DNA of 64,000 nt from a virus (lineage: Duplodnaviria > Heunggongvirae > Uroviricota > Caudoviricetes). Under the pieces are notes generated by a model. It was given only the letters and a program-made list of their open reading frames with translations. It did no database searches and had not been told where the DNA came from. The translations under genes and the position numbers were made by a program. The stretch is taken from positions 22,586 to 86,585 of the IMG/VR virus record IMGVR_UViG_2681813421_000002, one strand, 5' to 3'. Below are positions 4,037 to 59,391 of this stretch, in pieces (positions within the stretch are counted from its first letter, which is position 1; every line of letters starts with the position of its first letter).

Positions 4037-4186
4037 AGGTCGATCTGTCAGGTATCGAAAGGAAGATTTTCGGGAGATTGTGATTTTGGATGAAGGAGGG
4101 GGAATTCATAAAATGCACTTGCGCACAGTGCAACAGTGCGCTATAGTTATGGCATTCGGTAATCATCACGGAGGATCAAATGACTA

Positions 4187-8672: not shown

Positions 8673-8889
8673 TGCTTTGGCGTTATGACTCCCTACCGCG
8701 CTTCGGCTGAAAGTTAATCGTCAAAAGAACCTTCAACGGGAGCCGTTAGCGCGATGGATTATGTGCAGTTTGTGATTTCCAAAATAGTGTCAACCACTTT
8801 TTGTGGATTTTATTTTTTGACCGAAATTTGGCCTAAATCATGTTGATGTAGTTGATTGTTTTTGTAACATAAAACTTCATTTTGTTTAC

Positions 8890-17433: not shown

Positions 17434-17473
17434 TCAAATCATTTACGCACTCAAAATCACATTAGAACATTGA

Positions 17474-24758: not shown

Positions 24759-25853
24759 TCACTCAATGATTTTTTCTGCTGTCAGCCAGCTAATTTCTTG
24801 CCTGTCTTTCGGCGGTTTTAGCATGTGGGCGTATTCAGCGACATTCTCCCACGGAATTGTTTTTGCCCACTCAACGATAGCATTGTGATCTGCAGTGAAG
24901 AGTGGAATGGTGTGCGATTTCAACCATTCTAATGTCGTGACGCCATGTTTTTTGGCGTGGTGCTGCGCATGATGCCGGGCTATCACTCGTAATGGTATTG
25001 TCCATTCACTACCATCAGGCATCGAAAAGCGCATTGTCTTCGGCATATCTGATTCAAGAACAGCCTCCCTAATACCAGGGAACTCACCAAGAATCATACG
25101 ACGATAGTCATCACTATTTCGCCCGCCATACCTTTCGGCAAAATGATCAAGATATTCTTGGGTAATAAATGGTGAATCCTCCGCACTCAGCTTAATGGCT
25201 TTATATACACCACTCGGATTATCTTCAGCTAAAGCACGTCCATGATGTGAATCATAAAAAAAGCCTATTTCCTCTGGTGACGGAATTGAAGTGAGCAATA
25301 TGCGTGAATCACCACTAGTCATGCTTGCCCACACAATGCTGTATGCCCGATCGCTGATATGTGCGGAATCCACAATAATGAATAAAAGATGGTCGGCGTA
25401 GTGACCTGCAATGCTATCTTCATAGTTAAGGCGGAAGTTACAAAAGCACATTCCCCAAAATTCATTGAACATCAGACCGCTATCACCGACCTTAAAATAC
25501 TCAATGATAAAAGGTTGTTTTTTCAGCAATGCCTCCCAACATTGCCACACATATGCAACAATTCCTCTTTTGCAAACATTTGATTTTGGATAAACAATTA
25601 CTGTCCGGGAATCAGGATACATAATCGTATAAAGGGTACTAATAACAGCAAGCACTTGCGGTCGTCCGATCCCATACGGAGTGGTGACAGTAGCTTTTGC
25701 ATTATTGGGCTGTATAGCTTCAACAATTTGTTGTTGCTGGTGGCTTAAATCAATATCAAACAATTCTTTTGCTGCCAGTACCCAATTGTCTTTATATTTC
25801 TCCACCAGCGACAGCCAGCGCGGATCTTTATAAATATTGCTCTTAGTCGCCAT
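24759..25853 (-). CDS. Terminase large-subunit-like ATPase paralog with degenerate Walker A/B motifs
   Basis: Aligns with PacB-like N-terminal domain (SHQQQQI..., FYDSHH..., NPxG) but Walker A GHGTGKS is replaced by PYGIGRP and Walker B ILDEASGIS by IIVDSAHIS; start taken at MATKSNIYKD. Confidence 0.6.
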   Translation of the reverse strand: MATKSNIYKDPRWLSLVEKYKDNWVLAAKELFDIDLSHQQQQIVEAIQPNNAKATVTTPYGIGRPQVLAVISTLYTIMYPDSRTVIVYPKSNVCKRGIVAYVWQCWEALLKKQPFIIEYFKVGDSGLMFNEFWGMCFCNFRLNYEDSIAGHYADHLLFIIVDSAHISDRAYSIVWASMTSGDSRILLTSIPSPEEIGFFYDSHHGRALAEDNPSGVYKAIKLSAEDSPFITQEYLDHFAERYGGRNSDDYRRMILGEFPGIREAVLESDMPKTMRFSMPDGSEWTIPLRVIARHHAQHHAKKHGVTTLEWLKSHTIPLFTADHNAIVEWAKTIPWENVAEYAHMLKPPKDRQEISWLTAEKIIE

Positions 25854-29779: not shown

Positions 29780-29845
29780 TGACAAAAAATCACAGTTCGA
29801 TCCTTTACTCACCCTGTTATTCGACATAAATTTGTCATAGTAATT

Positions 29846-29864
29846 TTATGTTAGAAAACTAAAT
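29846..29864 (-). promoter_or_regulatory. Operator-like motif (ATTTAGTTTTCTAACATAAA on minus strand)
   Basis: 13 bp upstream of the start codon of 29877-30914. Confidence 0.5.
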
Positions 29865-29876
29865 CGAGTAGGAATA

Positions 29877-30914
29877 ATGAGTAAGAAGTCGATCGAGAAA
29901 GAGTACAAACGGTTCCTGCAAACCGCTGAACGGTGGAAAGAGCTGGTGGTCGCAAACTCTGTTTTCCATGATACCAGTTATGCTGGCGAGGAATTCCGCC
30001 ATGTTGCATTAACGCATGACCAAAACATATTAGAAGAAGCTGAAAAATGTCTTGCTGAATGGAAAGCCTTCGTTGACATGTGCCGCGATGCCGACGGCAA
30101 AGCGTCGAACATTGTTGAGTCTGTATATTCTCCGATCCCATTCATCATTGAGGACACCAATCAAAGCACGCATGTCGTTGTGCAAAGCGCTACAACAACA
30201 CGTACATTTACACGTGAACAATTGCTAAAAAAATACGACAAAATCATAAAGAAAAGCCTGAAAAATAGGGTTTTTTCTCAAATCGTAGGTGCTCTTGAAG
30301 AAGAACAGCGCTTCTTTGAAGCTGAGCCTGAAGGCGAGATCTACCGGGCGCGTAAAGAGGCATATACAGATGTTGTGCTGACAACAAACATCGAAGGCAG
30401 CAATGCCCTTTCTCGCTTTAGAGTTGGCGCACATGGCGCATTGGTTTTCGCAAGACTACCGAAGACAACGATCCCCGTTGTCAATAATGTTGGTGAACGC
30501 CGGAGCATTACAATTTATTCTGGCGTCGAATCGGTACCATGCAGCCTTCTCGGCGATTTTAACTTATATCGTGTTCGTGACCTGGAAAAACACCAGCCAA
30601 GCTACGTTGCGAAGTCGTACATCTTAAGGAACATCGATATTCGCAATGAAAGCCTTAAGCAGAAATCCGCTAAGATGCTGGAGGATGCCGATCCGGCTAT
30701 TCGCCATATCATTGAACGTAAGATACGTACATCACGTGAAGCAATGGCAAGGTTGGATAAAATGGATCTGGAATTGTTAGACGTAATGATGGCCTCTGGA
30801 GACGACCTGACCGGCATTAAACTGAATGAAGCTCGTAAAAAATACGGCAAAGCAATCGAAGAACGTTACGGATACACATTCCCCCAAACGCAGTACGCCG
30901 CGAAGCTCTGGTAA
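29877..30914 (+). CDS. Candidate C1-type immunity repressor (positional analog of P1 c1)
   Basis: 345 aa; lies between lox/cre and pacB, convergent with pacB, flanked upstream by two operator-like motifs; I do not recognise the protein sequence itself. Confidence 0.4.
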   Translation: MSKKSIEKEYKRFLQTAERWKELVVANSVFHDTSYAGEEFRHVALTHDQNILEEAEKCLAEWKAFVDMCRDADGKASNIVESVYSPIPFIIEDTNQSTHVVVQSATTTRTFTREQLLKKYDKIIKKSLKNRVFSQIVGALEEEQRFFEAEPEGEIYRARKEAYTDVVLTTNIEGSNALSRFRVGAHGALVFARLPKTTIPVVNNVGERRSITIYSGVESVPCSLLGDFNLYRVRDLEKHQPSYVAKSYILRNIDIRNESLKQKSAKMLEDADPAIRHIIERKIRTSREAMARLDKMDLELLDVMMASGDDLTGIKLNEARKKYGKAIEERYGYTFPQTQYAAKLW

Positions 30915-30923
30915 TCACAACCG

Positions 30924-30946
30924 GCCCCGCATCGCGGGGCTTTTAT
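30924..30946 (+). terminator. Rho-independent terminator
   Basis: GCCCCGC-ATC-GCGGGGC followed by TTTTAT. Confidence 0.55.
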
Positions 30947-32451
30947 ATATCCAGATCCGGCATTTCGATATCCGCCAGAACCTGATCTCGGAAAGTTGCC
31001 ATTTCGGCACCAATATCTTCATTAGCAGGCACATAGTCCACCAGCATAGTGAAGCAGTAGGTATCCCATCGGTCAGGCGATTTGATGTTTAGCTTTTGCC
31101 GCATGTGCTCTTTGCGCATCATCGCCATTTTCCCTTCCTCATTCAGTAAAAAGGGGATTTTTGACGCTTGCTCTGCCGTTTTAGGGTCACTGTCTATCCG
31201 CATACGCCCTGACTTTATGGCATCACGCGCCATAATATTTGCGTAGGCACGCTGATTAACAAATCGCTCCCTGTCTTTGTTCGCAAACATGGGTTTTCCC
31301 CACCGAATACGTACCGGGTTCGCACCACGACGTACCAACTGCGCACACGTATCAGAACCAAAACCATCGGCATCAACCGCGATTGTTATATTCGGGTATT
31401 TTTCCGGCGTACATTCGTTATATATAAAGTCAGCAAAGGCCAATGGGTCCATAGTGCCAGGCATCTCCATTACCTTAAAGTTAACAACGCGCCGCTTATC
31501 CCTGTGACCAGATACCTTGCAGATGTTGAGGACCGACTTATCTCGCCCATTACCAACGTCAGCCGTTGCCACCCATCCCCAGTTTTTCTCCAACAACACC
31601 TTGCGGCGAGCAGCGCGATCGCATTCATCACGACCAAGCAAATAGCCGTTAATTTCTCGTGGGAACTGACCAAGCACCTTGACCATATACTCAATAGAAT
31701 CGCGCCCACCATATTCCAGAAGCTTCTGCCTGATGAATTGTGGTGTGACGAACGGTGATTCTTCCGAGTTAAGAACAATTGCTGTCCAGATCCCTTTCGG
31801 GTTGTCTGGGGTTTTTGCTTGAGAATGGTGCGAATCGTAGAAATAACCACTTGGCCTTGTTGGCTGGGATAGCATCAACATCCGGTTATCTTCTTCAGTA
31901 AGAGCACCGGTCATTACGCCGATCGCCTTATCAGATATACCAGATGCTTCATCCAGAATTAGAAGCAAATGTGCCGCATGTTCCCCCGCCAGCGCTTCTT
32001 CGTTGCCGAGTCGATAACCTTTGCAGAGAACTTCCCAAATCCCCTTACGGGAGCGCTCATAAAACATGGTGTCAGAGAGGACAAAATAGGTCTGCAACCA
32101 CCCATGACGCTTAACTGCATTCGCCCAATACTGTTTAACGTATTTGAATACGCCTGTTTTTACCTGGCCTATCTTGTTAGCAACAATGATGACACGGGCA
32201 TCGGGGAACAGGATCATAAAAATCAACAGCAACATCGCGGTAAGGGACGACTTCCCAGTTCCGTGTCCGGACGTGACGGTCGTCCTACTCCCCGTTTCCT
32301 GCACGGACTGAATGATCTGCTGCTGCTGGTGGGAGGGGAACATCCCAAAAATATCGACAACAGCCTGGGTAAAGTTGTAGCGGTATTTGATTACCATATC
32401 GCGCCAGCGTGGATCGCTGGTGACGCATTTAATCTTGCGCCCTCCAGCCAT
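30943..32451 (-). CDS. pacB: Terminase large subunit (PacB-like)
   Basis: 502 aa; Walker A GHGTGKSS, Walker B LLLILDEA, C-terminal nuclease-type acidic residues. Confidence 0.85.
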   Translation of the reverse strand: MAGGRKIKCVTSDPRWRDMVIKYRYNFTQAVVDIFGMFPSHQQQQIIQSVQETGSRTTVTSGHGTGKSSLTAMLLLIFMILFPDARVIIVANKIGQVKTGVFKYVKQYWANAVKRHGWLQTYFVLSDTMFYERSRKGIWEVLCKGYRLGNEEALAGEHAAHLLLILDEASGISDKAIGVMTGALTEEDNRMLMLSQPTRPSGYFYDSHHSQAKTPDNPKGIWTAIVLNSEESPFVTPQFIRQKLLEYGGRDSIEYMVKVLGQFPREINGYLLGRDECDRAARRKVLLEKNWGWVATADVGNGRDKSVLNICKVSGHRDKRRVVNFKVMEMPGTMDPLAFADFIYNECTPEKYPNITIAVDADGFGSDTCAQLVRRGANPVRIRWGKPMFANKDRERFVNQRAYANIMARDAIKSGRMRIDSDPKTAEQASKIPFLLNEEGKMAMMRKEHMRQKLNIKSPDRWDTYCFTMLVDYVPANEDIGAEMATFRDQVLADIEMPDLDI

Positions 32452-34315: not shown

Positions 34316-34705
34316 CCAGCGAGATAAGCGAACGACGTGTTTTACCTTAGCGATCCACTTACCACGTGAGTTATTAATTACGGCCTGCGCCACCTTTAAG
34401 CTGACTTCAAAATCAGCCTTACGACCATCAGAATCCACCAGCGTTGCACCGTCTATTTCCGGCAGGCTTAAATAATCCTGTTCTACCTCTAATGGCATTG
34501 ACGGCTCTCTGAATGGTGTCAATTGCCGAGCTTTCCAGATAAAGCGAACTCTCAATCCCCTATAAGCCATTACCATGTAGCCTGTTATCGTGCTCTTATG
34601 GCCTGCATCAGTACGCGCAGCATTACACGATACAATCTTACAGGTGACGATATTCCACTCCACATTGGATACTTCGTGAATGCTTAATTTTGTGGTCTCG
34701 TACAT
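34313..34705 (-). CDS. Hypothetical protein
   Basis: 130 aa ORF. Confidence 0.4.
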   Translation of the reverse strand: MYETTKLSIHEVSNVEWNIVTCKIVSCNAARTDAGHKSTITGYMVMAYRGLRVRFIWKARQLTPFREPSMPLEVEQDYLSLPEIDGATLVDSDGRKADFEVSLKVAQAVINNSRGKWIAKVKHVVRLSRW

Positions 34706-35280
34706 CAGAATGCCTCCCAGTCAGTCGCGATAATATCCACGCCAGTGGCGAACCAGTCTGTCTGTGCCTGTAAGTCTCCATTCATCATTACCAGCCGAGG
34801 CATAACCATCACATCGCACCCTTCCACAATATCGAATGCTTCTTCCGGCAGGAATTCGACGAGCTTTTCTTTGCTGCCTATACTGCCACGGAACATCGAC
34901 ATATAGCTCCCTTTAGGCCATGATGCCCGGCGGGCGTCAAGCCCCTTCATCATCCAGAACACGGCGGCAGAAAAATTGATGTTCTTTTTGGCGATGAAAA
35001 CATTATTGGCTTCTGTTTGCTTCAGAAACTTAATTAGCCTTGCCATCGACTCTGATAACGCTACGTATGGCTCATGATTGGCTGCGGACACGCTCACACC
35101 ATGTAATCCAACACTGACTACCGTCATATCGCCGCTTTGAGCGGTTTCAATGTTGACACCTTTGCGAACTAACGAGGCATAAAGTTCCTCTCGCTTTTGT
35201 GTCCAGCGTTCCCGCTGACCGATGAAGTCACTCAATATGAGATCTGCTTCTGCATACGCGTTATCGTTCGCCGTTAACAT
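34705..35280 (-). CDS. Hypothetical protein
   Basis: 191 aa ORF, 1-bp overlap with downstream gene. Confidence 0.45.
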   Translation of the reverse strand: MLTANDNAYAEADLILSDFIGQRERWTQKREELYASLVRKGVNIETAQSGDMTVVSVGLHGVSVSAANHEPYVALSESMARLIKFLKQTEANNVFIAKKNINFSAAVFWMMKGLDARRASWPKGSYMSMFRGSIGSKEKLVEFLPEEAFDIVEGCDVMVMPRLVMMNGDLQAQTDWFATGVDIIATDWEAF

Positions 35281-35836: not shown

Positions 35837-36664
35837 TTATTTCACCGGAACAAACGGAACAGCGGCATTACTGGTCATATACTGCGGTAATGTACCGTTC
35901 CATTTGTTGATCGCTTCCAACTCCATAACACCGGGGTTCTGGCGCAGAGCTTCACCACGTAAACGAATGGCATCAGCTTCGGCCTGGGCTTTTGTGCGAA
36001 TAGCATCAGCCTGTCCGGCAGCTTCCGCGCGCAGCATGTTGGCCTCTGCTTCACGTTGTTTGACCTCTTGCTCGCGTTGCAGGGTTTTTTGGTTTGCCGT
36101 AACTTTGGCGTTAATACTGTCAATAACTGTTGGCGGATATTCTGGCTTACCTACATAAGAGAGGCTCATCACCTGAATGCCGATTGGCGTCATTTCTTCC
36201 TGAATGTCTTTAAGGGCTGCATCAAGCAATTCAGATTTGCCACCGTCGATAAATTTGTCGGTGGTCATTTTGCTGGCTAACCGGTTCAGAGCATCTGCAA
36301 CCTTCTGGCGTAGATCGGTATCAGTAATATCATCTACACCTTTGCGATAGGTCTGAAATACCGTTGTGACTTTTGCTGGATCAACCTTGTAGGCTACGCC
36401 GATGTGGTAACCAATGGTTGTTCCGTCGCTCATCTGGAAGCTGAACGGCTCATCGTATGTCTTCATTTGCTTAAAGGTCGGGAAGATATAAACTTCAGTA
36501 TTCAAGCCTGTCCAGTAGCGACCAACACCAACTACTTCACCGATACCTTTATCATCCCCCAGCTTATTTACTTTGATCCCTACGTTACCTGGCTCTACCC
36601 GATCGCATCCGGTCAGACATAAAGAACCCAAAATAATCGCTGCACTAATCAACGTTTTTTTCAT
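35837..36664 (-). CDS. plp: Prohibitin-like SPFH/band-7 lipoprotein (Plp)
   Basis: 275 aa; lipoprotein signal LISAAIILGSLCLTGC, SPFH-like core and Ala/Glu-rich coiled-coil tail. Confidence 0.75.
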   Translation of the reverse strand: MKKTLISAAIILGSLCLTGCDRVEPGNVGIKVNKLGDDKGIGEVVGVGRYWTGLNTEVYIFPTFKQMKTYDEPFSFQMSDGTTIGYHIGVAYKVDPAKVTTVFQTYRKGVDDITDTDLRQKVADALNRLASKMTTDKFIDGGKSELLDAALKDIQEEMTPIGIQVMSLSYVGKPEYPPTVIDSINAKVTANQKTLQREQEVKQREAEANMLRAEAAGQADAIRTKAQAEADAIRLRGEALRQNPGVMELEAINKWNGTLPQYMTSNAAVPFVPVK

Positions 36665-36881
36665 TAATTAATTTCCTGGTTTTTTCACGAAAAAAGACTA
36701 CTGCGAAAGCCGGGTAAATGAGCGCGAGAAGGACTCCCAACAATACAAGTATTGTGCTGTTAGATGAGATCATATTTGGCAAAAGCCAAACATACAGAAC
36801 CAGTGACACAATCAAACAGAGGACGGCATAAATATATAACCGCACCCATAGCGTTCGACATTTGTTCGGATTGTTCTGCAT
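36645..36881 (-). CDS. upl: Small membrane protein upstream of plp (Upl-like)
   Basis: 78 aa with two hydrophobic helices; overlaps plp start. Confidence 0.5.
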   Translation of the reverse strand: MQNNPNKCRTLWVRLYIYAVLCLIVSLVLYVWLLPNMISSNSTILVLLGVLLALIYPAFAVVFFREKTRKLINEKNVD

Positions 36882-37144
36882 CCTCTCACTCCATTATTTA
36901 ACGAATAAAAAAGCTGCGGTGCCGGGTACCTCCCGGTGTCCTTTGGCTGGTTATCCACCGTGGACGGGGAAACAAGGAGAAATGAATGGACTGATATAAC
37001 CATTTCCCCGCGTGCGCTTAGCCGCATTCACCGCAATGGTAAGAGCACTTGGCTGGCTGGGCGGCGATGACGCCTGTACGCATTTGGTGATCCGGTTCTG
37101 CTTCCGGCATTCGCTTAATTAGCCAAATACTCTTAACGTTGCAC

Positions 37145-37231
37145 TGGCGGAGAGTAATGGAATCGAACCATCATCGCTTGCGCAATGGGACGGTTTTCAA
37201 GACCGCTTGAGCACCATGCTCCCTACTCTCC
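37145..37231 (-). tRNA. Type II tRNA with long variable arm, anticodon UGA (Ser-like)
   Basis: 87 nt; acceptor GGAGAGT/ACTCTCC, anticodon stem GCGGT/ACCGT with loop CUUGAAA, T-arm GATGG-TTCGATT-CCATT, G73 and CCA. Confidence 0.5.
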
Positions 37232-37365
37232 CGTTATTGTGGCGACCGGTGCTGATCTCCGGCTTGCGGTTATTTCAGACTCTCACGGGCGTTTAATTGC
37301 CCCGCCGAACAGCTCTTTTCCGCAATAGCTGCAATGTCTTTCGCGCATCAGCCTGCGCATTCACC

Positions 37366-37457
37366 ACAATGTTGAGAACACTGGTTGTCACGCTGCAACG
37401 CAACATTTATTCATAGATTGGGATATGACCCCGTTACGCCAGTGTTCTCAACGTTGT
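37366..37457. repeat. 19-bp inverted repeat (18/19 match) separated by 54 bp
   Basis: ACAATGTTGAGAACACTGG ... CCAGTGTTCTCAACGTTGT in the tRNA-cluster intergenic region. Confidence 0.55.
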
Positions 37458-37603
37458 AGTGCCGGTTACGGTTCCGGCCAGGCCTCTTCCTCAACGGGGT
37501 GTTCTCCATACGGACTACCGTTTATTGGTCGTTCCTGCGGTTTATGTTGTGAAGCCAGATGCTTATCTTCTGGTTGCTTCAAAGAGCTGCACTTCATCAC
37601 AAC

Positions 37604-37677
37604 GGTAAGGGTACTTCGTAGGGATTCGAACCCTCTGCCAAGCACGGCGATCTCCGACGTCGCAAAATACCCTTACC
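37604..37677 (-). other. tRNA-like element with T-arm motif but non-canonical secondary structure
   Basis: Contains AGGGTTCGAATCCCT and a 10-bp terminal pairing (GGTAAGGGTA/TACCCTTACC) but I could not fit a standard cloverleaf; directly abuts tRNA-Thr. Confidence 0.25.
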
Positions 37678-37685
37678 TGTTGTGT

Positions 37686-37761
37686 TGGTGCCGGTTAACG
37701 GACTCGAACCGCTGACATCCTGCTTACAAGGCAGGCGCTCTACCAACTGAGCTAAACCGGC
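37686..37761 (-). tRNA. tRNA-Thr (anticodon UGU)
   Basis: 76 nt; GCCGGTT acceptor, GCTCAGTTGGTAGAGC D-arm, loop CUUGUAA, T-arm GGTTCGAGTCC, CCA. Confidence 0.8.
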
Positions 37762-37763
37762 AT

Positions 37764-37840
37764 TGGCGATGGTGGGTGGATTCGAACCACCGACCGACAG
37801 CTTAGAAGGCTGCTGCTCTATCCTACTGAGCTACACCATC
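37764..37840 (-). tRNA. tRNA-Arg (anticodon UCU)
   Basis: 77 nt; loop CUUCUAA, T-arm GGTGGTTCGAATCCACC, CCA end. Confidence 0.75.
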
Positions 37841-38300
37841 ACTTGCCGGGTACGTCTCCGGCGAGGGCTTCCACCTCCGTATGCTTTTCGGCGCACCGCG
37901 CCCTGGCTGCAATTCGGTAACAGGGGATGCACAACCCTGGCTTCCAGCGTGATTAGCGCCTTCAGCATGACGGGATATACCCGTAGTAGGATGTTATCCC
38001 AGAAAGCCATTAATCAATGGCTGTTACGCGGGAGGGACGTAACAGGTAAGGGCGCTGACCAGAAAGACCTGACCCTTCTCATTCATCTGGTTAATCACAC
38101 CAGCACCCTTGCCTGTTATGCCTCCCCGTTCCCTAATACACAGACGGGGACACTCTGCGGTCGATTTTTTGACGGGGGACGACTCATACCCCGTGGCGTC
38201 AGGCTTCTTAGGCCGCTACCATCATCAGATCATCGTTTGCATTTACTTTAATGGTCGGGTTCTAAACCGCCGCAAAGTCGCTAACCATGACGAAAACCCT

Positions 38301-38324
38301 AAAAAAGCCCACCCGAAGATGGGC
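38301..38324 (-). terminator. Rho-independent terminator (minus strand)
   Basis: GCCCA-loop-TGGGC followed on minus strand by TTTTTT. Confidence 0.45.
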
Positions 38325-38344
38325 AAATACGCTACATCTCACAC

Positions 38345-38703: not shown

Positions 38704-38905
38704 AAGACGTGCATTGATGATTAGATGCAGCATGTACCGTTACTCTCTGCCGGACCATCATCAATGAACACCTTAAAAAGACCTTCCGTGGCTCAACATG
38801 TATTGTCGTTTACTCCGCAAAGTGCTCTCTCTGAAACCACTTTCCGCACTAAACCTGCTGAACTTTGGCCTGCACGGTGCCAAAGCGTGCTCTTGCGTTA
38901 CTACA

Positions 38906-38921
38906 CTTTTCTAACACTTTA
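38906..38921 (+). promoter_or_regulatory. Operator-like motif (TTTTCTAACACTTTAA)
   Basis: Core TTTCTAACAC inside the structured noncoding region. Confidence 0.4.
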
Positions 38922-39055
38922 ATTTGTTAAATGCTGGTGGGCAAACAATAACCAATAAGTGACTATCAAGCCCAGCAAGCGAAACGTGGGTACCGCCCAC
39001 CAGCAAGGAAAATTCTATGTTAAGTTACCTTCACAATCAATACATTCGAATTGTG

Positions 39056-39076
39056 AATTTAGTTTTCTAACATATT
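39056..39076 (+). promoter_or_regulatory. Operator-like motif (AATTTAGTTTTCTAACATATT)
   Basis: Overlaps the 3-prime end of gene 39075-40283; placed to control minus-strand transcription into the 38.3-39.0 kb noncoding region. Confidence 0.45.
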
Positions 39077-40283
39077 ATTTCCCGTAAAGATCTTCTACAC
39101 CCCCATTCTTCTTATCCCATTCGTTCGCCCATACCCGGCAAGCGTCAATGATTTCCTGACGACGATCTCCTTGCATGAACGGAATGCTTTCATGGAAACA
39201 GCTTGGAATGCAGGCCACACTGAATACAGTATCAAACTCCGTCTGCTTGATTGCCTCCAGCGTCTCCGGACGCATTTTTAATTCATCGATTGGCGCATCC
39301 TTAGAGTCCATAATCCGGCGATATAAGCGCGGAAAATCCGTCTCCAGGTACGCCATAATTTTATCTGCGAGACATTCGTCTATGTCGGTATTCCAGTCCT
39401 TTTCGAAGCCCGGCAGGCGATAGTAAAGCGGCGTTCCCCATACCGATGGGATCACATCCATCGTTAACAGGCGATTAGTTCTGATTTGTTGATGGTAATT
39501 AGCCGTCAGCAGTGCTTCGCCACGCTGCCCAGTTTCCGCAACCAGGCCGTGCGGATACTCATGGATGTAGGCAATGGCATCCCTTCCATCATACATAAGT
39601 GGAAATGTCTCTGGTCTTTGTCCCATGCCACAAGCACGGTTCAGATCGTGACCAAGCTGTGAGCACTCTCGCTTTAATGTTTCGATAATGCTCTGCGCTG
39701 TAGCCAACTTTTTACGCAGTGTGACGCCTTCGCCTTGATAATCAATGCATTGCTGATTGAGCTTGGTTAAACGCTCTTTTAGTTCCCGGCGCTCTCTTTT
39801 CAGCGTGCGGTTATCCTTCTCCGCAACATCCAGCCGCTTTGTCAGGCTTGGCGGATAGTCTTTTTTGTAACGGTTCAAATCGGCTTCGGCAGATTTACGC
39901 AGTGTATTTGCCTGTTCAAGACGCGCTTCCAGATTGCCGATCTCATTACGCATATTCGCGGCAAATTGATTAACTGCATCACCCAGGCTTTCAACTGTCG
40001 CTGATACGCCTGTGACTTGTGAAAAACGGATCAAGCCATCATTAACGGCTTGTTGGTATTCCTCAAACTGATCCACCAGCTTATTGTAATCAACTGCCCC
40101 ATCATCAAGCAGCTTGTTGATTTCCGCCACCAGGTTATCTGTAGTGGCAATGACACTCTCGTGCAGTCGCTTTGACAGGTCATCACCCGGATTCCGTTTC
40201 TGTATAAGAGCGATTTGTGTGCGCAGCGTTTCAATTGCTGTCGAGATAATTTCCAGATTAGAAGTATCAGTGTGTTGACTCAT
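39075..40283 (-). CDS. Hypothetical protein with N-terminal coiled-coil, operator-flanked
   Basis: 402 aa; long heptad-like N-terminal half, globular C-terminal half. Confidence 0.5.
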   Translation of the reverse strand: MSQHTDTSNLEIISTAIETLRTQIALIQKRNPGDDLSKRLHESVIATTDNLVAEINKLLDDGAVDYNKLVDQFEEYQQAVNDGLIRFSQVTGVSATVESLGDAVNQFAANMRNEIGNLEARLEQANTLRKSAEADLNRYKKDYPPSLTKRLDVAEKDNRTLKRERRELKERLTKLNQQCIDYQGEGVTLRKKLATAQSIIETLKRECSQLGHDLNRACGMGQRPETFPLMYDGRDAIAYIHEYPHGLVAETGQRGEALLTANYHQQIRTNRLLTMDVIPSVWGTPLYYRLPGFEKDWNTDIDECLADKIMAYLETDFPRLYRRIMDSKDAPIDELKMRPETLEAIKQTEFDTVFSVACIPSCFHESIPFMQGDRRQEIIDACRVWANEWDKKNGGVEDLYGK

Positions 40284-40304
40284 TGCTGTTCCCGTTACCT
40301 TGTT

Positions 40305-40325
40305 AAATTAGTTTTCTAACATATT
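40305..40325 (+). promoter_or_regulatory. Operator-like motif (AAATTAGTTTTCTAACATATT)
   Basis: 22 bp upstream of the start codon of 39075-40283. Confidence 0.5.
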
Positions 40326-40363
40326 TTATTAGTTTGATGACGGTATCGGAAGATGCAATAAAC

Positions 40364-40390
40364 AAAAAACCCGCTAATTGGCGGGTTTTT
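40364..40390. terminator. Bidirectional rho-independent terminator
   Basis: CCCGC-TAATTG-GCGGG with A-run before and T-run after. Confidence 0.55.
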
Positions 40391-40396
40391 ATGCAA

Positions 40397-40711
40397 TTAC
40401 TGTGTTGCAGCCTGATAAATAAGATACGCGATAAATACAGGTACGATGGCCCATTGCAGCAATGAAAGTAGCCTCATTACTGTTATTGGGGTAACTCCAT
40501 CCACGTATTGTTTCTCTGACATTTTCCCTAACCAACTAACCGACAACAGTGCCGAGTTTTCACCCAATTCCAGCTCTCTGAGAGCTTCACGGATTAACGG
40601 CGCTGTCACAGCCTTAACCGGTGTGCTCAACGTGATACTCCGCGTCCTCCCCGCATCGTCAGCGAACGCCAGACTCACATAATATTTTTTGCTCAATGTA
40701 CAAACTCCCAA
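40397..40711 (-). CDS. Hypothetical small membrane protein (possibly shorter than the track ORF)
   Basis: C-terminal hydrophobic helix LLSLLQWAIVPVFIAYLIY. Confidence 0.3.
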   Translation of the reverse strand: MGVCTLSKKYYVSLAFADDAGRTRSITLSTPVKAVTAPLIREALRELELGENSALLSVSWLGKMSEKQYVDGVTPITVMRLLSLLQWAIVPVFIAYLIYQAATQ

Positions 40712-40907: not shown

Positions 40908-41402
40908 TTAATCAAGACAAACATACTCCGTGATAGCTTTTATGGCTTCAGCGGCACTGCGCGCCTCAAAGCAGTAGTAACCGGCTTCAGTGAGGCGAGT
41001 CATCCAGACGAGTTGTTCGGGAGTCAGGCGATTTCTCCCATGTTTCATCTCAATGCGCATTCCGTGGTATCCCCCACAAGCAAGGTCTATAGAAAGATCG
41101 GGGTATCCCTTCTTTTGGCCCTCTGCCACCATTTTTATTGCCGTCCTTATGCCTCGCAGGCCACCGTTTGGAGTGGCGTGAGTATGCTCATACACATAAC
41201 GCATATTGCGATACAACCAGTCCAGGACGCGAACCTGCTCGTAATGCTCATGGTTCCTTTTGATTAGATCTGGGTTTTTCTCCAGTTCTCTAAGAGCTGC
41301 GGCATGTGGGGATGTTTCAGAATATTCACTGCGACGCCTTCTCTTTTGCGCTATTTTTCTAACACACTCATTGATAGTAAATATGCGAAATAATAACAAC
41401 AA
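40908..41402 (-). CDS. VRR-NUC domain nuclease
   Basis: 164 aa; HATPNGG...GYPDLSIDLACGGYHGMRIEMKHG (PD-(D/E)XK core). Confidence 0.6.
   Translation of the reverse strand: MLLLFRIFTINECVRKIAQKRRRRSEYSETSPHAAALRELEKNPDLIKRNHEHYEQVRVLDWLYRNMRYVYEHTHATPNGGLRGIRTAIKMVAEGQKKGYPDLSIDLACGGYHGMRIEMKHGRNRLTPEQLVWMTRLTEAGYYCFEARSAAEAIKAITEYVCLD
41351..41368 (+). promoter_or_regulatory. Operator-like motif (CTATTTTTCTAACACACT) within 5-prime region of VRR-NUC ORF
   Basis: Exact core TTTCTAACAC; position inside the annotated ORF is unusual. Confidence 0.35.
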
Positions 41403-49184: not shown

Positions 49185-49259
49185 GGGGACGATACTACCG
49201 TCAAAATCACATACTCCCCATAGTTTGCCTACTTATTAACCCATGACCGGGAGAAAAAT

Positions 49260-52482: not shown

Positions 52483-53481
52483 TTACCCCCTTCTGGAAAC
52501 GAAGAGTAACGGGGTAGTGTTTTTGTTCTCCTTCGGTGATAACTCTGGTTCTTTCTTGCCTGATACCGGTAAGCCATAAGTAGCATTTGCCCCAAGAGAT
52601 TCAAGCATCGCAGCCACTATGCGGGCATCATCTTCAGACTGCATACGGCAGAGCGCCCGGCGCTGTTCTGCGCTGATAAAAACAGGCATTTCCTGGATAG
52701 CTTCACGCAAAATCCGGCGGCATTGCTTTGCATTTTCCCCCTGGCTTTCCATCATCGCTGTTTGAGCGCGCAGCTTATCTCGAAGCTGTATGTTTTCCAC
52801 TTCAAGGAGCATCAATTCTGATTCCAGGGCTTCACGATGTGCAGATTCGAGCATGGCTTGCTGATTTTTCATTGCTGAAAAGTGGTGAACCAGATCCGTA
52901 GCAGCGTTATCGGTAAAACCTTGTTCGATAAGTGCTGCATGAATAGCCGCATCGCGCTCTTCTGCTGATTCAAGCATCAGGCTTTTCTTGTCGAGGCTGA
53001 TATAGTTAGGCACAGTTACGTAATCAAAGCCGTGGAAAGACTTTACCAGGGATACCGATGAATCTGGACCAGATGTAGCCCACGACCAACCACCAGCACC
53101 AGAATTAATCATGCCCTGAACAATACGCCCGGTGTCTGTATCCAGTATTTCCTGCGTATGAGTAACAATGCCGTTGTCGTCAATCGAAATGTCGATAGTC
53201 CTGTTTGACGGCACGTTCTCCAATACAACAGGCTTCCCATCTACCATCACAACAGAGACTTCCGGCAAGTTCAGGCTTTTCGTTTTGTTATAGTGCATCG
53301 CCCGGCGACCATGACCGTAATAACCATACATCTCACCCAGCGCGATACGCTCTTTTGTTTCTGGCGAGTTGAATGTGTCTCGTACCGACTGAATGACGTA
53401 ATTTCGGTTGTTCTGCGGTGTGTGTTTGCGGATTTTCTCTACCAGGGAGAAGCGATCCGTAACAGTATTCAGTGATTGCAT
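52483..53481 (-). CDS. Head morphogenesis/prohead protease-like protein (positional call)
   Basis: 332 aa directly downstream of portal-like gene. Confidence 0.35.
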   Translation of the reverse strand: MQSLNTVTDRFSLVEKIRKHTPQNNRNYVIQSVRDTFNSPETKERIALGEMYGYYGHGRRAMHYNKTKSLNLPEVSVVMVDGKPVVLENVPSNRTIDISIDDNGIVTHTQEILDTDTGRIVQGMINSGAGGWSWATSGPDSSVSLVKSFHGFDYVTVPNYISLDKKSLMLESAEERDAAIHAALIEQGFTDNAATDLVHHFSAMKNQQAMLESAHREALESELMLLEVENIQLRDKLRAQTAMMESQGENAKQCRRILREAIQEMPVFISAEQRRALCRMQSEDDARIVAAMLESLGANATYGLPVSGKKEPELSPKENKNTTPLLFVSRRG

Positions 53482-53494
53482 TATTTCCCTCCGG

Positions 53495-55177
53495 TTAATT
53501 GCTCATCACAAATTTTGCAAAGTTTATTAACTGTTCTGGCGTCCAGTTTTCCGGATCGTCACCGGACGACAACGGCGCGGATTCGTACATACCATGCTCG
53601 TTGTTTTGCTCTGATTCATTCGCCTTAAACTCTTTGATCATGGTGTTGAGAGTGTCATCGTCGATGTGCAACTGCTCAGTGAACAGATAACGCATAAACG
53701 CGTCGCTACCAGCCAGTTTCGGGTTGTTCTGGATCTGGTCCATAATTTGGGAGATGACAGCAACAAAGTTGGCGCGTGCATCCAGTTCTCGGTTTTCCTC
53801 TTCCTGGATAGCTGTGTTCATTGAGTTGAATTGCACGTCATAAGGGCGATTTGTTTCGGTGTAAACCTTGCCGTATTTATAAGCGAGGTGAATGTCCAGA
53901 AGCCGATAAATAGTTCGCTGGGCGGCCTGTCTGATCCAGTTCGCACGCAATGCAGCCTGGATAGCAGTTTGCTGCCAGCCGCCTTCTCCAAGCCCTCCGC
54001 TCATCTGATCAGCCCAGCCAAGCATTGTTGCGTCAATGCCGAGGCTTGCAGCAAGCTGCCGGAGGTGAAACATAACGTCTTCGATACCACTGATATCTGC
54101 GGGTATGGATTGCGTATCAATGGTGATGCCGTTCTTCCCGTCTCCCATAACAGGTATCAGATGGTTAAGCACAGTCGGAATAGCGTTGGCATTAATCGAC
54201 CTTTGCGCCACCAGGTCACTATGACGCTTCAATGCCTGGCTGACGCCACGCGTATAGTTCGCCGCATTAACCGGGTCCAGTGTGTTCGTCGTAAGAGCAA
54301 TCAGGCGGTCAATTTTGGCTGCATTATTTCGCGTTGATTTCAGCGCGGCGAGCGAAGCACATAAATTAAGGTAAGGTTCATAGCTGTATTCCAGGAATGA
54401 AGTTCCGTAATTCTGCGTCTCCATTAACGGCTTATCAGCCTGATCACTTAACAGTGAGTACCCTTTTGTGCCGTAGCTAACCGGAATAACTTTATGCTGT
54501 GGCGTCCAATAGGGATTTTTCATGGAAACCAGATTCCACGGTTCGGTTATTACTCTGCGCAAACTATGCGTATCCAGAATGTAATCACCACTGAAACCTA
54601 CCAGCTGGCTACCACGATAAAACTCCTGGACGAAGTGTGGCAGAGTGTAATAACTGGACTCAATGCCTGTTATCCCCCTGCCCTGTTCAGCATAAGGTCG
54701 GACATAAGACACCCCAAAGATCGCCATAATCATGGCCCATGAAGGAAGTCCGTCATTAATCATCGTCCCCAAATCAGCGGTTAACTCTTCACATCTACTT
54801 ACTGCCTCGGCATCGGAACCATCCTTTGGCGAAAGGATGAATGCTTGTCCGGTTTTTTTTGAAGGCGCAAGCGCATGTGCAATGTGAATATTTAAAGCCG
54901 TCGAGATAGTCGGGCTTTTAGCCATCGTTTCCAGGATGTTGTACTTTTGCAGGCGGTCGCCGGGCAGTTCTGCCGAAATTGATACTGTATCTGCCGCGCT
55001 TGTCATGCCATCGCTATTGCCACCCAGTATCCCCGGACGTAAAGCGGACAGACCAGAACGCGCAACGACACTATGACCGCTCGTAAAAACGACCGGATCG
55101 GCAGGCGTGACATCGCCACTGTTGAAGGCTTTCTTCAATGCCGACAGAAAGCCTTTGTTTTTGTCTTTCGTTGCCAT
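53495..55177 (-). CDS. Portal-like protein (positional/size call)
   Basis: 560 aa in morphogenetic block downstream of the Dar operon. Confidence 0.45.
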   Translation of the reverse strand: MATKDKNKGFLSALKKAFNSGDVTPADPVVFTSGHSVVARSGLSALRPGILGGNSDGMTSAADTVSISAELPGDRLQKYNILETMAKSPTISTALNIHIAHALAPSKKTGQAFILSPKDGSDAEAVSRCEELTADLGTMINDGLPSWAMIMAIFGVSYVRPYAEQGRGITGIESSYYTLPHFVQEFYRGSQLVGFSGDYILDTHSLRRVITEPWNLVSMKNPYWTPQHKVIPVSYGTKGYSLLSDQADKPLMETQNYGTSFLEYSYEPYLNLCASLAALKSTRNNAAKIDRLIALTTNTLDPVNAANYTRGVSQALKRHSDLVAQRSINANAIPTVLNHLIPVMGDGKNGITIDTQSIPADISGIEDVMFHLRQLAASLGIDATMLGWADQMSGGLGEGGWQQTAIQAALRANWIRQAAQRTIYRLLDIHLAYKYGKVYTETNRPYDVQFNSMNTAIQEEENRELDARANFVAVISQIMDQIQNNPKLAGSDAFMRYLFTEQLHIDDDTLNTMIKEFKANESEQNNEHGMYESAPLSSGDDPENWTPEQLINFAKFVMSN

Positions 55178-55358
55178 GAGTCACCGCGAAATGTTTTCAG
55201 TTTGCGGCAGCATAATCAGTATGTGATTTTTGATGATGGATCTTTTCAACTAGAAATATTGGCTGGCCCCTCTCGTAACAAAGTGAAGAATAAAACTTGA
55301 ATATGCACATTGTGCGCATTAAGATTGAAAAAGTTGACCACTTTGCTGCGGAGAAATC

Positions 55359-59298: not shown

Positions 59299-59391
59299 AA
59301 TACACTCCCCTTACATAGAAAGCAGGAAGTGTAAAAAGTGTGTGATTTATGGACTTACAGGAAAGTGAAAGGGGCATTTCAGCCCCTTTGA

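Follow-up and report, generated by a model that had tools for sequence, protein, structure and literature searches.

The closest described systems for the locus considered here are those of phage P1 and of its relative D6. In P1, a pair of operators, OpmgRa and OpmgRb (Op86a/b), is recorded as serving to 'control expression of pmgR and pmgS', and the pmgS gene itself was scored non-essential both by CRISPRi and by deletion (PMC10695390), a result that refers to plaque formation on laboratory hosts only and to a protein 21% identical to the one described below. A study of the P1 virion places pmgS outside the five essential pmg genes and leaves it unmentioned in the main text (PMC9024508). In D6 (MF356679 / NC_050154), a close relative in which the flanks are 99.2% identical to those studied here, the same gene is orf9. 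The D6 record names its product 'putative prohead scaffolding protein', a label that the evidence from the present DNA does not support, and annotates neither operators, promoters nor a terminator, whereas all three are predicted below.

By sequence, the stretch of DNA analysed (the window, 64,000 nucleotides) is assigned to the P1 family of plasmid prophages, or phage-plasmids, as a D6-like member. It shares 99.2% nucleotide identity with D6, from which it is separated by indels and mosaic segments. The gene of interest is the following:

39075..40283 (stop included), minus strand: pmgS-type gene with an ATG start, a 402-aa open reading frame equivalent to D6 orf9.

The reading frame, which a sequence-only reading had proposed, is real (39075-40283, minus strand). 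Its protein is 99.5% identical to that of D6 orf9 and identical to a 402-aa protein of an E. coli entry (P0001). The D6 record puts the start 15 nt further upstream, where the window reads GTA; the ATG at 40283 agrees with all homologues. A profile search did assign the protein to a known family over its full length, PHROG 1660 'PmgS-like' (E 1.4e-146, with residues 1-401 aligned to positions 1-404 of a 405-position profile), although the functional label of that family is itself unproven. BLASTP aligned it with P1 PmgS end to end at 21% identity (residues 11-395, E 3e-13), and P1 was not reached by tblastn of the protein against the phage collection at a cut-off of 1e-5. The gene lies directly after pmgR, as in P1, and the order darB-ulx-orf13-pmgM-orf11-pmgR-pmgS is common to the window and six related elements (loci L007, L008, L009, L011, L012 and L014). 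On these comparisons the reading frame is taken to be the D6-type orthologue of P1 pmgS. The gene had been thought to lie outside the known C1-controlled functions of P1; it proves instead to be the orthologue of one that stands under Op86a/b there. Because P1 pmgR-pmgS is already annotated as C1-controlled via Op86, membership of pmgS in the C1 regulon is expected rather than new.

The protein divides into three predicted parts:

39633..40268, minus strand, codons 6-217: N-terminal half, four long helices in the AF2 model (6-30, 35-91, 97-142 and 146-217).
39414..39608, minus strand, codons 226-290: small beta domain, with AF2 strands at 226-231, 234-243, 264-269 and 274-280.
39105..39296, minus strand, codons ~330-393: (HhH)2-like domain of the RNAP alpha-CTD / RAD51 N-terminal-domain type.

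The model was built from a 68-sequence alignment and has a mean pLDDT of 88.1; an earlier run with 9 close homologues gave 60.7, and less than 50 in the conserved 225-303 region. The description of the product as a coiled-coil protein holds for residues 6-217, with their four long helices, and fails for residues 226-393, a globular stretch of beta and helical structure that is the best conserved in PmgS. Profile searches with the single protein (Pfam, NCBIfam, PADLOC) gave only weak matches of the coiled-coil type, far below cut-offs, among them SMC, Rad50, ERM, DivIVA, JetC and LmuB; the helical half would probably mediate oligomerisation. The beta domain bears the family-conserved motifs YI..F..GL, H..IRT and W..P..P, and searches of the PDB and BFVD gave no specific match to its fold. 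Foldseek against PDB and BFVD returned nothing at E <= 0.001, the PDB E-values all exceeding 0.09, and only the recurring matches to alpha-CTD and RAD51-NTD were considered meaningful. They fall on the C-terminal domain, modelled as a five-helix fold with two helix-hairpin-helix units. HHH_5 was matched by 13/68 family members; the window's PmgS itself has no Pfam HhH match. Its hairpin reads PFMQGDRRQEII, a degenerate form (FMQGDRR), whereas KG(I/M/F/L)G stands there in most family members. The G-h-G signature has been lost from the HhH hairpins of the D6 and P1 clades, and classical HhH DNA binding may therefore have been lost with it; the domain could be a protein-protein module.

The upstream operator-like motif and the bidirectional terminator that had been reported ahead of the gene were both recovered, the former as an exact 18-mer 24 bp from the ATG (22 had been claimed, a difference of motif edge only) and the latter at 40365-40390. 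The control region comprises:

40308..40325, plus strand (reversed relative to the gene): candidate C1-type operator, an exact 18-mer at about -9 to +9 of the predicted promoter.
40323..40351, minus strand: predicted sigma-70 promoter PpmgS, read from the sequence and aligned with relatives.
40351-40346 and 40328-40323: its elements, -35 TTCCGA and -10 TAAAAT, separated by a 17-bp spacer, with a predicted start at about 40316.
40365..40390, between pmgR and pmgS: bidirectional intrinsic terminator AAAAACCCGCCAATTAGCGGGTTTTT, a hairpin with a 10-bp stem and 5 GC pairs.

PpmgS was not called by the consensus promoter scan because its -35 matches at 3/6 positions only, and both the promoter and its start site are regarded as putative. 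At the same position the relatives have far better promoters (TTTACA/TTTACT-16-TATAAT and TTTTAA-17-TACAAT), each of them overlapped by a forward operator. A reverse-oriented TTAGAAAA operator occupies the same place in L007 and L008; in L009 the copy is degenerate. The geometry of the pmgS operator matches that of the operator 15 bp upstream of c1. The terminator is preceded by an A-run and followed by a T-run and should therefore be able to work both ways; an equivalent hairpin follows pmgR in 4/4 relatives examined (L007, L008, L009, L011). Rfam has no family for the pmgS flanks or the downstream leader, and its leader-peptide-type matches at ~40268-40467, well below gathering scores, were rejected as terminator-hairpin artefacts. 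In the mechanism proposed, pmgS would have a weak sigma-70 promoter of its own, insulated by the terminator from the upstream darB...pmgR operon. The start site of PpmgS would be covered by one 18-bp asymmetric D6-type C1 operator, so that C1 would occlude the promoter in the lysogen. Once C1 is inactivated, host RNA polymerase would transcribe pmgS as an early gene, with no need for the late activator Lpa. That pmgS is an early, non-essential gene repressed by the prophage C1 as in P1, and that it encodes a non-structural accessory protein, is judged probable.

The assignment of the operator depends on the distribution of the motif. The 18-mer, TTAGTTTTCTAACATATT, has two exact copies, 40308-40325 and 39059-39076, both written on the plus strand and hence both reversed relative to the minus-strand gene that they flank; the second, seen already by the sequence-only reading at the 3' end, lies across the stop codon and overlaps the TAA by 2 nt. 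With up to 3 mismatches allowed, the window has 6 matches where 0.03 would be expected, a number reached in 0/100 shuffles; for the core TTTTCTAAYA there are 11 where 0.30 would be expected. When the genes around the sites were assigned by tblastn across the window, 13/14 sites fell outside mapped coding sequence, in both orientations (binomial P ~8e-8, even assuming an inflated non-coding fraction of 24%), the sole exception being a site at 41355-41364 within the annotated 5' end of pmgM. Sites stand upstream of c1, lpa, ref/orf88, orf86-icd-ant, hrdC-dmt (where they form an inverted pair), pdcB and the orf117-dut operon, with further ones upstream of icd-ant, repL, pmgS and the tRNA leader. 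In P1, C1 operators are found at ref, kilA-repL and the c4-icd-ant (immI) region as well as at the annotated loci. The latter, in the P1 record, are c1, lpa, dmt, ban and pmgR-pmgS, and the window has sites at the counterpart loci. In the relatives c1 retains a proximal reverse and a distal forward operator, and the pmgS promoter is operator-covered too. The 18-mer is very probably the D6-type C1 operator, a site that C1 would bind. The claim that the gene belongs to the immunity-repressor regulon is thus borne out by a motif with scattered copies, nearly all of them intergenic, that lie at loci of the c1, lpa, ref, repL, icd-ant and dmt type; given this distribution and the upstream copy over the predicted start, placing pmgS in the C1 regulon is reasonable.

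The presumed repressor and its own operator are encoded elsewhere in the window:

29877..30914, plus strand: c1 repressor gene, the presumed trans-acting factor.
29845-29862: proximal operator of c1, 15 bp upstream of the c1 ATG.

The c1 product is 100% identical to D6 orf1 'prophage repressor' and 21% identical to P1 C1 over 240 aa (E 2e-8); the C1 homologues of the relatives match Pfam Phage_P7_repressor_C1. The D6-type consensus TTAGTTTTCTAACATATT departs from that of P1, ATTGCTCTAATAAATTT; what the two share is limited to the CTAA core and an AT-rich 3' part. D6-type sites are absent from the top 25 matches of a PWM built from 15 P1 operators, and a hand alignment of the two operator types, 11/16 around the CTAA core, is merely suggestive. 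As there is no formal similarity to the P1 operator, the C1 assignment rests on position and not on sequence, and the D6-type C1 would have a repressor specificity different from that of P1 C1.

The exact copy at the end of the gene was taken initially as part of the control of pmgS; instead it heads the next unit, in front of a conserved promoter, TTGATT-17-TAGAAT:

39059..39076, plus strand: candidate C1-type operator on the pmgS stop, an exact 18-mer at about -54 to -71 of the downstream promoter.
39012..39040, minus strand: predicted promoter of the ban-operon-like unit, TTGATT-17-TAGAAT, called by the consensus scan.
38900..38923, plus strand: second operator-like site, in the leader, with its core at 38907-38916 (about +90 to +99), from PWM and core matches.
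37343..38327, minus strand: leader and tRNA segment, whose P1 match runs from the ban-operon leader through trnA and trnT into the start of the plp region.
37764-37840 and 37686-37761, minus strand: tRNAs of the downstream unit.

The leader and tRNA segment has 92.9% identity to P1 by blastn (L003 18856-19845). The downstream promoter is kept as TTGATT-17-TACAAT in L007, L008 and L009; the operator just past the pmgS stop is kept in L007 and L009 and missing in L008, and AATTAAA(A/G)TGTTAGAAAAGT at the leader site is conserved in 4/4 loci. This unit, in which the leader and tRNAs are followed by genes for a small membrane protein and an SPFH lipoprotein, is the counterpart of the P1 ban operon. 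The stop-codon operator would have no part in the control of pmgS; together with the leader operator, ~90 nt in, it would flank the promoter of this unit. An antisense plus-strand promoter, TTGTGA-16-TATTAT (39051-39078), was considered at the same place and rejected, as it is not conserved in relatives.

Two other readings of the motif have to be weighed. The 18-mer contains a short inverted repeat, TTAG-N4-CTAA, followed by a -10-like TATTAT or TATTTT, a layout reminiscent of P1 late promoters, which combine a -10 with a box ~22 bp upstream; nor is its similarity to the P1 C1 operator significant by PWM. It might then be the site of another regulator, either an Lpa-dependent late promoter or the target of an antirepressor- or Bof-like factor. 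In the late-promoter orientation, however, transcription from the copies at pmgS and c1 would lead away from the genes or run antisense to them, and the antisense promoter at 39051-39078 lacks conservation. The sites lie at early and immunity genes (c1, lpa, repL, icd-ant, ref), not before the head, tail and lysis operons, and lpa, whose first expression cannot depend on Lpa, carries a site of its own. There is, moreover, a separate candidate for the late box. The Lpa of the window is well conserved (Pfam BPP1_LPA, E 1.4e-56), and the P1 Lpa boxes, of the AAGTGACTT type, are unrelated to the 18-mer. The P1 late box as GTGACTT or AGT[GT]ACTT was not found upstream of late genes in the window; a P1-like box, AAATCACA(T) (or ATGTGATTT as its reverse complement), is present ahead of the late genes 7, mat, prt, ddrB and darB/orf16, though it was spotted by eye and is modestly enriched, 9 against 3.5 expected. 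Neither the AAGTGACTT-type box nor the D6-type variant AAATCACA is present in 39000-40400, and the pmgS promoter, with no 9-bp box ~22 bp upstream of its start, does not appear to be an Lpa-dependent late promoter. Another regulator's site is therefore a very unlikely reading. The two perfect, same-orientation 18-mers that bracket pmgS also invite the idea that they cooperate, with C1 looping the 1.25-kb gene so that the 3' site aids repression. In P1, looping by C1 from one operator to another has been reported for the c1 region, and c1 and the downstream unit likewise have paired operators, ~95-170 bp apart. Against this, L008 lacks the 3' site while keeping its pmgS promoter operators, the 3' site has an obvious local job beside the conserved downstream promoter, and the upstream operator, already over the start site, needs no helper. 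Such cooperation seems unlikely, if somewhat less so than a different regulator, and occlusion of PpmgS by a single C1 operator is preferred.

The third alternative concerns the protein, which may be a prohead scaffolding or head-morphogenesis protein with its coiled-coil half as the scaffold. The labels say as much ('putative prohead scaffolding protein' in D6, 'PmgS-like head morphogenesis' in RefSeq, and the PHROG name), a long helical N-terminal half is typical for scaffolds, and pmgS follows pmgR, deletion of which in P1 leaves unjoined heads and tails (PMC9024508). Yet a scaffold would be essential, and P1 pmgS is non-essential by two methods (PMC10695390); P1 probably uses the N-terminal 120 residues of its major capsid protein as an internal scaffold (PMC9024508). 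The predicted promoter of pmgS is of the repressor-operated sigma-70 type with no late-promoter box, a terminator lies between pmgR and pmgS in D6-like elements, and the portal and protease genes (52486-55177) are 12 kb away. Family members occur in early or accessory regions: in a lambdoid prophage, adjoining a YqaJ exonuclease and Dam; in a Vibrio phage, adjoining a methyltransferase; and in an ICE-like contig, where no capsid genes are found near the homologue. The C-terminus is, finally, a domain of the alpha-CTD/RAD51-NTD type. Scaffolding is accordingly the least probable of the alternatives, and highly improbable in itself.

The early, non-structural accessory protein that is favoured over a scaffold looks like a DNA- or polymerase-contacting factor. 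Its target early in the lytic cycle would be DNA, or else a partner bound to DNA, for instance the machinery of transcription, replication or recombination. A specific version, in which PmgS carries its alpha-CTD-like (HhH)2 domain on a long helical oligomer and with it mimics or competes with RNAP alpha-CTD, or bridges DNA, and so redirects host transcription or organises replicating phage-plasmid DNA directly after derepression, is speculative and unlikely to hold in that form. If true, it would make PmgS the first of a class of phage proteins aimed at polymerase or DNA, with conservation in P1/D6 phage-plasmids, in some lambdoid prophages and in ICE-like elements.

The finding holds but is for the most part ordinary, its one new point being the DNA- or polymerase-contacting look of the protein as against the scaffold annotation. 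A false lead is removed, in that the gene is the D6-type version of P1's Op86-controlled pmgS and not an unrecognised member of the regulon. A working definition of the D6-type C1 operator (TTAGTTTTCTAACATATT, core TTTTCTAAYA) is provided together with a map of ~14 sites, which should help to annotate D6-like phage-plasmids, of which E. coli and Salmonella have many, the D6 record being without such features. There is no support for the 'prohead scaffolding / head morphogenesis' label that has been passed on for PmgS, and the picture that would replace it is of an early, non-structural protein with a predicted alpha-CTD/RAD51-NTD-like domain.

Set against known systems, the (HhH)2 fold of RNAP alpha-CTD and RAD51 NTD is joined in PmgS to a helical region of 215 residues and to a novel beta domain; it is likened to alpha-CTD by predicted fold, and contact with DNA, an UP element or an activator would be putative. 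The ban control region of P1 (Obanab/Op72, P1ban) has a long non-coding leader and tRNAs like the window unit, and a C1-operated sigma-70 promoter of the kind predicted for it. It differs in that its operators form an overlapping bivalent pair, whereas the D6-type operators of the window unit are split, lying ~20 bp upstream of the -35 and at ~+90. The first tRNA is Arg(tct) in the window and Asn(gtt) in the P1 ban operon, and the ban helicase and tciA/B of P1 are missing from the window unit. At pmgS itself, P1 has a promoter before pmgR and co-transcribes pmgR-pmgS(-pap), whereas the window has a terminator after pmgR and a predicted promoter for pmgS alone; P1 has pap, and in the window, which lacks it, the ban-type tRNA unit comes next. 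In each case the next C1 operator lies just beyond the operon, OpmgT in P1 and the ban-type operator in the window. Common to both are the orthologous protein, its slot after pmgR, and, as predicted for the window, immunity-repressor control via asymmetric operators at a sigma-70 promoter, with one reverse operator between the -10 and the start codon.

Around pmgS the sequence shows 99.2% identity to that of Escherichia phage D6, a plasmid prophage related to P1. Across the full window, identity to D6 is mosaic (75-98%), with indels and replaced segments, which marks the element as D6-like and not D6 itself. The gene in question is the following:

39075..40283, minus strand, pmgS ORF, ATG start, 402 aa

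This ORF is D6 orf9, labelled 'similar to P1 gene pmgS; putative prohead scaffolding protein'. A profile search made as a direct check of the pmgS label showed PHROG 1660 'PmgS-like' covering the 402-aa protein over its full length (E 1.4e-146), and P1 PmgS is 21% identical from residue 11 to 395 (BLASTP, E 3e-13). The gene order darB-ulx-orf13-pmgM-orf11-pmgR-pmgS is common to the window and six related contigs. The sequence-only reading had recognised in it none of the C1-controlled functions of P1; it is, however, a named gene, and the P1 annotation already puts its orthologue under C1, which makes pmgS with C1-type control a further case of a known kind. In the D6 record orf9 starts 15 nt 5' of the ATG (the 40284-40298 stretch), where the window has GTA, not a start codon. 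The ATG at 40283 matches the starts of all homologues (MSQ...), which makes the 402-aa form the correct one.

The same reading had reported operator-like motifs 5' of the gene and at its 3' end, together with a bidirectional terminator upstream. All three are present: the 18-mer TTAGTTTTCTAACATATT has exact copies at 40308-40325, 24 bp 5' of the ATG, and at 39059-39076, where it shares 2 nt with the stop codon, and a hairpin at 40365-40390 stands between an A-run and a T-run. Both exact copies are written on the plus strand and are thus reversed relative to pmgS. Allowing up to 3 mismatches, TTAGTTTTCTAACATATT occurs 6 times in the window against 0.03 expected, and the core TTTTCTAAYA 11 times against 0.30. 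All strong and weak copies of this predicted operator were placed on a gene map derived from tblastn of D6 proteins, as follows:

782-825, inverted, overlapping operator pair 5' of the hrdC-dcm-dmt operon, 14 bp 5' of hrdC
12248-65, operator at the ref stop codon, ahead of orf86-orf85-icd-ant
12902-25, operator in the ref/orf88 divergent region
17476-93, operator 5' of pdcB
28432-55, operator 5' of the orf117-dut operon
29845-62, operator 5' of c1, reversed as at pmgS, 15 bp before the ATG
34276-99, operator 5' of lpa
38900-23 and 39059-76, operators in the leader after pmgS
40308-25, operator 5' of pmgS
41348-71, operator inside the annotated pmgM 5' end
51249-72, operator 5' of the second icd-ant
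52452-69, operator 5' of repL

Thirteen of the 14 sites fall outside mapped coding sequence (binomial P ~8e-8, even with 24% of the window counted as non-coding), and the arrangement of the 782-825 pair is like that of the bivalent P1 operators Obanab and Oc1ab. The operator-like site at 41348-41371, within the pmgM 5' end as annotated (TTG start at 41402), and a possible promoter, TTTACA-17-AAAAAT, overlap. Relatives have pmgM homologues 6-15 residues shorter, which would fit a misplaced start in the D6-type gene or a promoter internal to it.

In the P1 record C1 operators are annotated at c1, lpa, dmt, ban, 26/pmgL, ppp, pmgR-pmgS and pmgT, so that the D6-type sites share the same kinds of control region. 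The C1 homologue encoded by the element equals D6 C1 at 100% identity and shares 21% with P1 C1 (E 2e-8); C1 copies of relatives match Pfam Phage_P7_repressor_C1, and in two relatives c1 likewise has a reversed operator proximal to it and a forward one distal, ~95 bp upstream. P1 and D6-type operators are weakly similar, with a common CTAA core and AT-rich 3' part, and a position weight matrix from 15 P1 operators did not pick out the D6-type sites, which fits a different repressor specificity. It is thus the position and distribution of the sites, and not their sequence, that assign them to C1. The operator reading of the motif is well supported, with C1 predicted to bind these sites.

Late promoters were considered as another identity for the 18-mer and rejected, as the P1 Lpa boxes (AAGTGACTT, ATGTGACTT and similar) are unrelated to it and a separate, candidate P1-like box is present at late genes. 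Lpa is well conserved in the element (Pfam BPP1_LPA, E 1.4e-56), and the box AAATCACA(T), reverse complement ATGTGATTT, equals the P1 LPpac Lpa box at 8/9 positions and is found 5' of late genes 7, mat, prt, ddrB and darB/orf16:

4079-4086, 8771-8778, 17454-17461, 29787-29794, 49204-49211, 55222-55229 and 59341-59348, AAATCACA(T) boxes

Enrichment is modest (9 against 3.5 expected), so the box is treated as a lead, a candidate D6-type late-promoter element; none occurs between 39000 and 40400.

The 3' operator had been read as part of the evidence that places pmgS in the regulon. The features that follow it on the minus strand point to a different attribution:

39040-39012, minus strand, predicted downstream-unit promoter TTGATT-17-TAGAAT, directly 3' of the pmgS stop codon
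37764-37840, minus strand, tRNA Arg(tct), Rfam and ARAGORN
37686-37761, minus strand, tRNA Thr(tgt), Rfam and ARAGORN
37145-37231, minus strand, tRNA Ser(tga), Rfam and ARAGORN

The promoter is kept as TTGATT-17-TACAAT in three relatives. The stop-codon operator, ~20 bp 5' of the -35 of this promoter, is present in the window and at two loci of related elements, L007 and L009, and is missing from a third, L008; a second operator-like site, AATTAAAGTGTTAGAAAAGT (core 38907-16, ~+90), is kept in 4/4 loci. The stretch from 38327 to 37343 aligns at 92.9% identity with the ban-operon leader, trnA and trnT of P1 and with the beginning of its plp region. This identity and the placement of the tRNAs (Rfam scores 75 and 72 bits) identify the unit, by sequence comparison, as the counterpart of the C1-controlled P1 ban operon (Obanab/Op72) and the 3' operator as a control element of this neighbouring operon. 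Cooperation of the two pmgS-flanking operators via looping is possible, but is unnecessary to explain the data. A plus-strand, sigma-70-like TTGTGA-16-TATTAT (39051-39078), overlapped by the operator, would give transcripts antisense to the pmgS 3' end; as relatives do not keep it, it probably arose by chance.

The first tRNA, Arg(tct) here, has Asn(gtt) as its P1 homologue, so either the anticodon differs or the gene was replaced within a segment 93% identical to P1; in the D6 GenBank and RefSeq records the tRNAs at these positions are assigned to the plus strand and named Ser, Thr and Asn. The predicted 5' end of the transcript that follows pmgS coincides with the beginning of a long minus-strand hairpin, TGCTGGTGGGC...GCCCACCAGCA (38932-39005; ~-35 kcal/mol for the leader segment). 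A stem of differing sequence, with possible compensatory changes, holds this position in L007 and L008 and is missing in L009; an Rfam search of the hairpin returned no family match. The Rfam sRNA family STnc100 weakly matches 36915-37035 on the minus strand (35 bits, with the gathering score at 47; E 4e-5), and this segment shares 92% identity with the interval from upl to tciA in P1. On the minus strand at 35837-36881, the place of tciA/tciB in D6 and P1 is taken by a membrane protein of 78 aa and a lipoprotein of 275 aa that carries an SPFH/Band 7 domain (E 1e-30), and tblastn of D6 tciA/tciB against the window gave no match. Between the tRNA unit and lpa, the D6 orf6 homologue (34705-35280, minus, 191 aa, 'hypothetical') matches Pfam Tad2-like, the Thoeris anti-defence 2 domain, over the curated cut-off (E 3e-9). 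A minus-strand protein at 25077-25835 shares 37% identity with the PacB terminase subunit over PacB residues 10-264; as the real pacB is distant (30946-32451), this may be a remnant or a partial paralogue of the terminase.

The PmgS family is small: of 1.84 billion cluster representatives, 87 matched at E <= 0.001. An AF2 model from a 68-sequence alignment (pLDDT 88.1) predicts four long helices across residues 6-217, then a beta domain (226-290), with the C-terminal part (299-393) again helical, so that 'coiled-coil-like' fits the N-terminal half of the protein and not the rest. The beta domain, the most conserved part, has no recognisable analogue. The family profile matches the RAD51 N-terminal domain, the RNAP alpha-CTD and the Brr2 Sec63 HhH unit (E ~1e-5), with Pfam HHH_5 matched by 13/68 members and RNA_pol_A_CTD by 8/68. 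The G-h-G hairpins are degenerate in the window protein and in P1 PmgS, which leaves DNA binding plausible, not assured.

These features bear on the putative prohead scaffolding role given in the D6 record. Against that label, P1 pmgS scored as non-essential by CRISPRi and deletion (PMC10695390), and the P1 virion study argues that the capsid protein's own N-terminal domain serves as scaffold; its main text does not mention pmgS, which is not among the five essential pmg genes (PMC9024508). The gene is nevertheless among the 21 most conserved of P1-like phage-plasmids (PMC9603915). Distant homologues occur in the early region of a lambdoid prophage, flanked by a YqaJ-type exonuclease and Dam, in that of Vibrio phage douglas 12A4, beside a methyltransferase, and on an ICE-like contig with TraG, GmrSD_C and TfoX. 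In light of these neighbourhoods, the non-essentiality in P1 and a predicted operator-covered sigma-70 promoter, the evidence points to an early, non-structural, DNA-associated accessory function. New here are the alpha-CTD-like domain, which undercuts the scaffold annotation, the definition and site map of the D6-type operator, and the separate promoter and terminator architecture of pmgS.

After the pmgR terminator, clear promoters are found in L007 (TTTACA-16-TATAAT) and L008 (TTTACT-16-TATAAT), where spacer and -10 form part of a forward operator, TTTCTAATATAAT, directly followed by a reversed one; L009 has a weaker TTTTAA-17-TACAAT with an overlapping forward operator and a degenerate reversed copy only. 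The aligned segment of the window reads ...TTCCGA-17-TAAAAT-ATGTTAGAAAACTAA..., with the -10 kept at 40328-40323, the forward operator decayed to AAACTAATAAAAT, and the reversed operator (40325-40308) covering ~-9 to +9 of a predicted start near 40316. Repressor on 40325-40308 would occlude RNA polymerase, and pmgS is probably under its own repressor-covered, predicted sigma-70 promoter. This arrangement resembles P1 PpmgR, where OpmgRa lies over the -35 and a reversed OpmgRb between the -10 and the start codon. Unlike in P1, where the promoter precedes pmgR, in D6-like elements pmgR would close the upstream operon at the terminator, leaving pmgS as a separate repressor-controlled unit.
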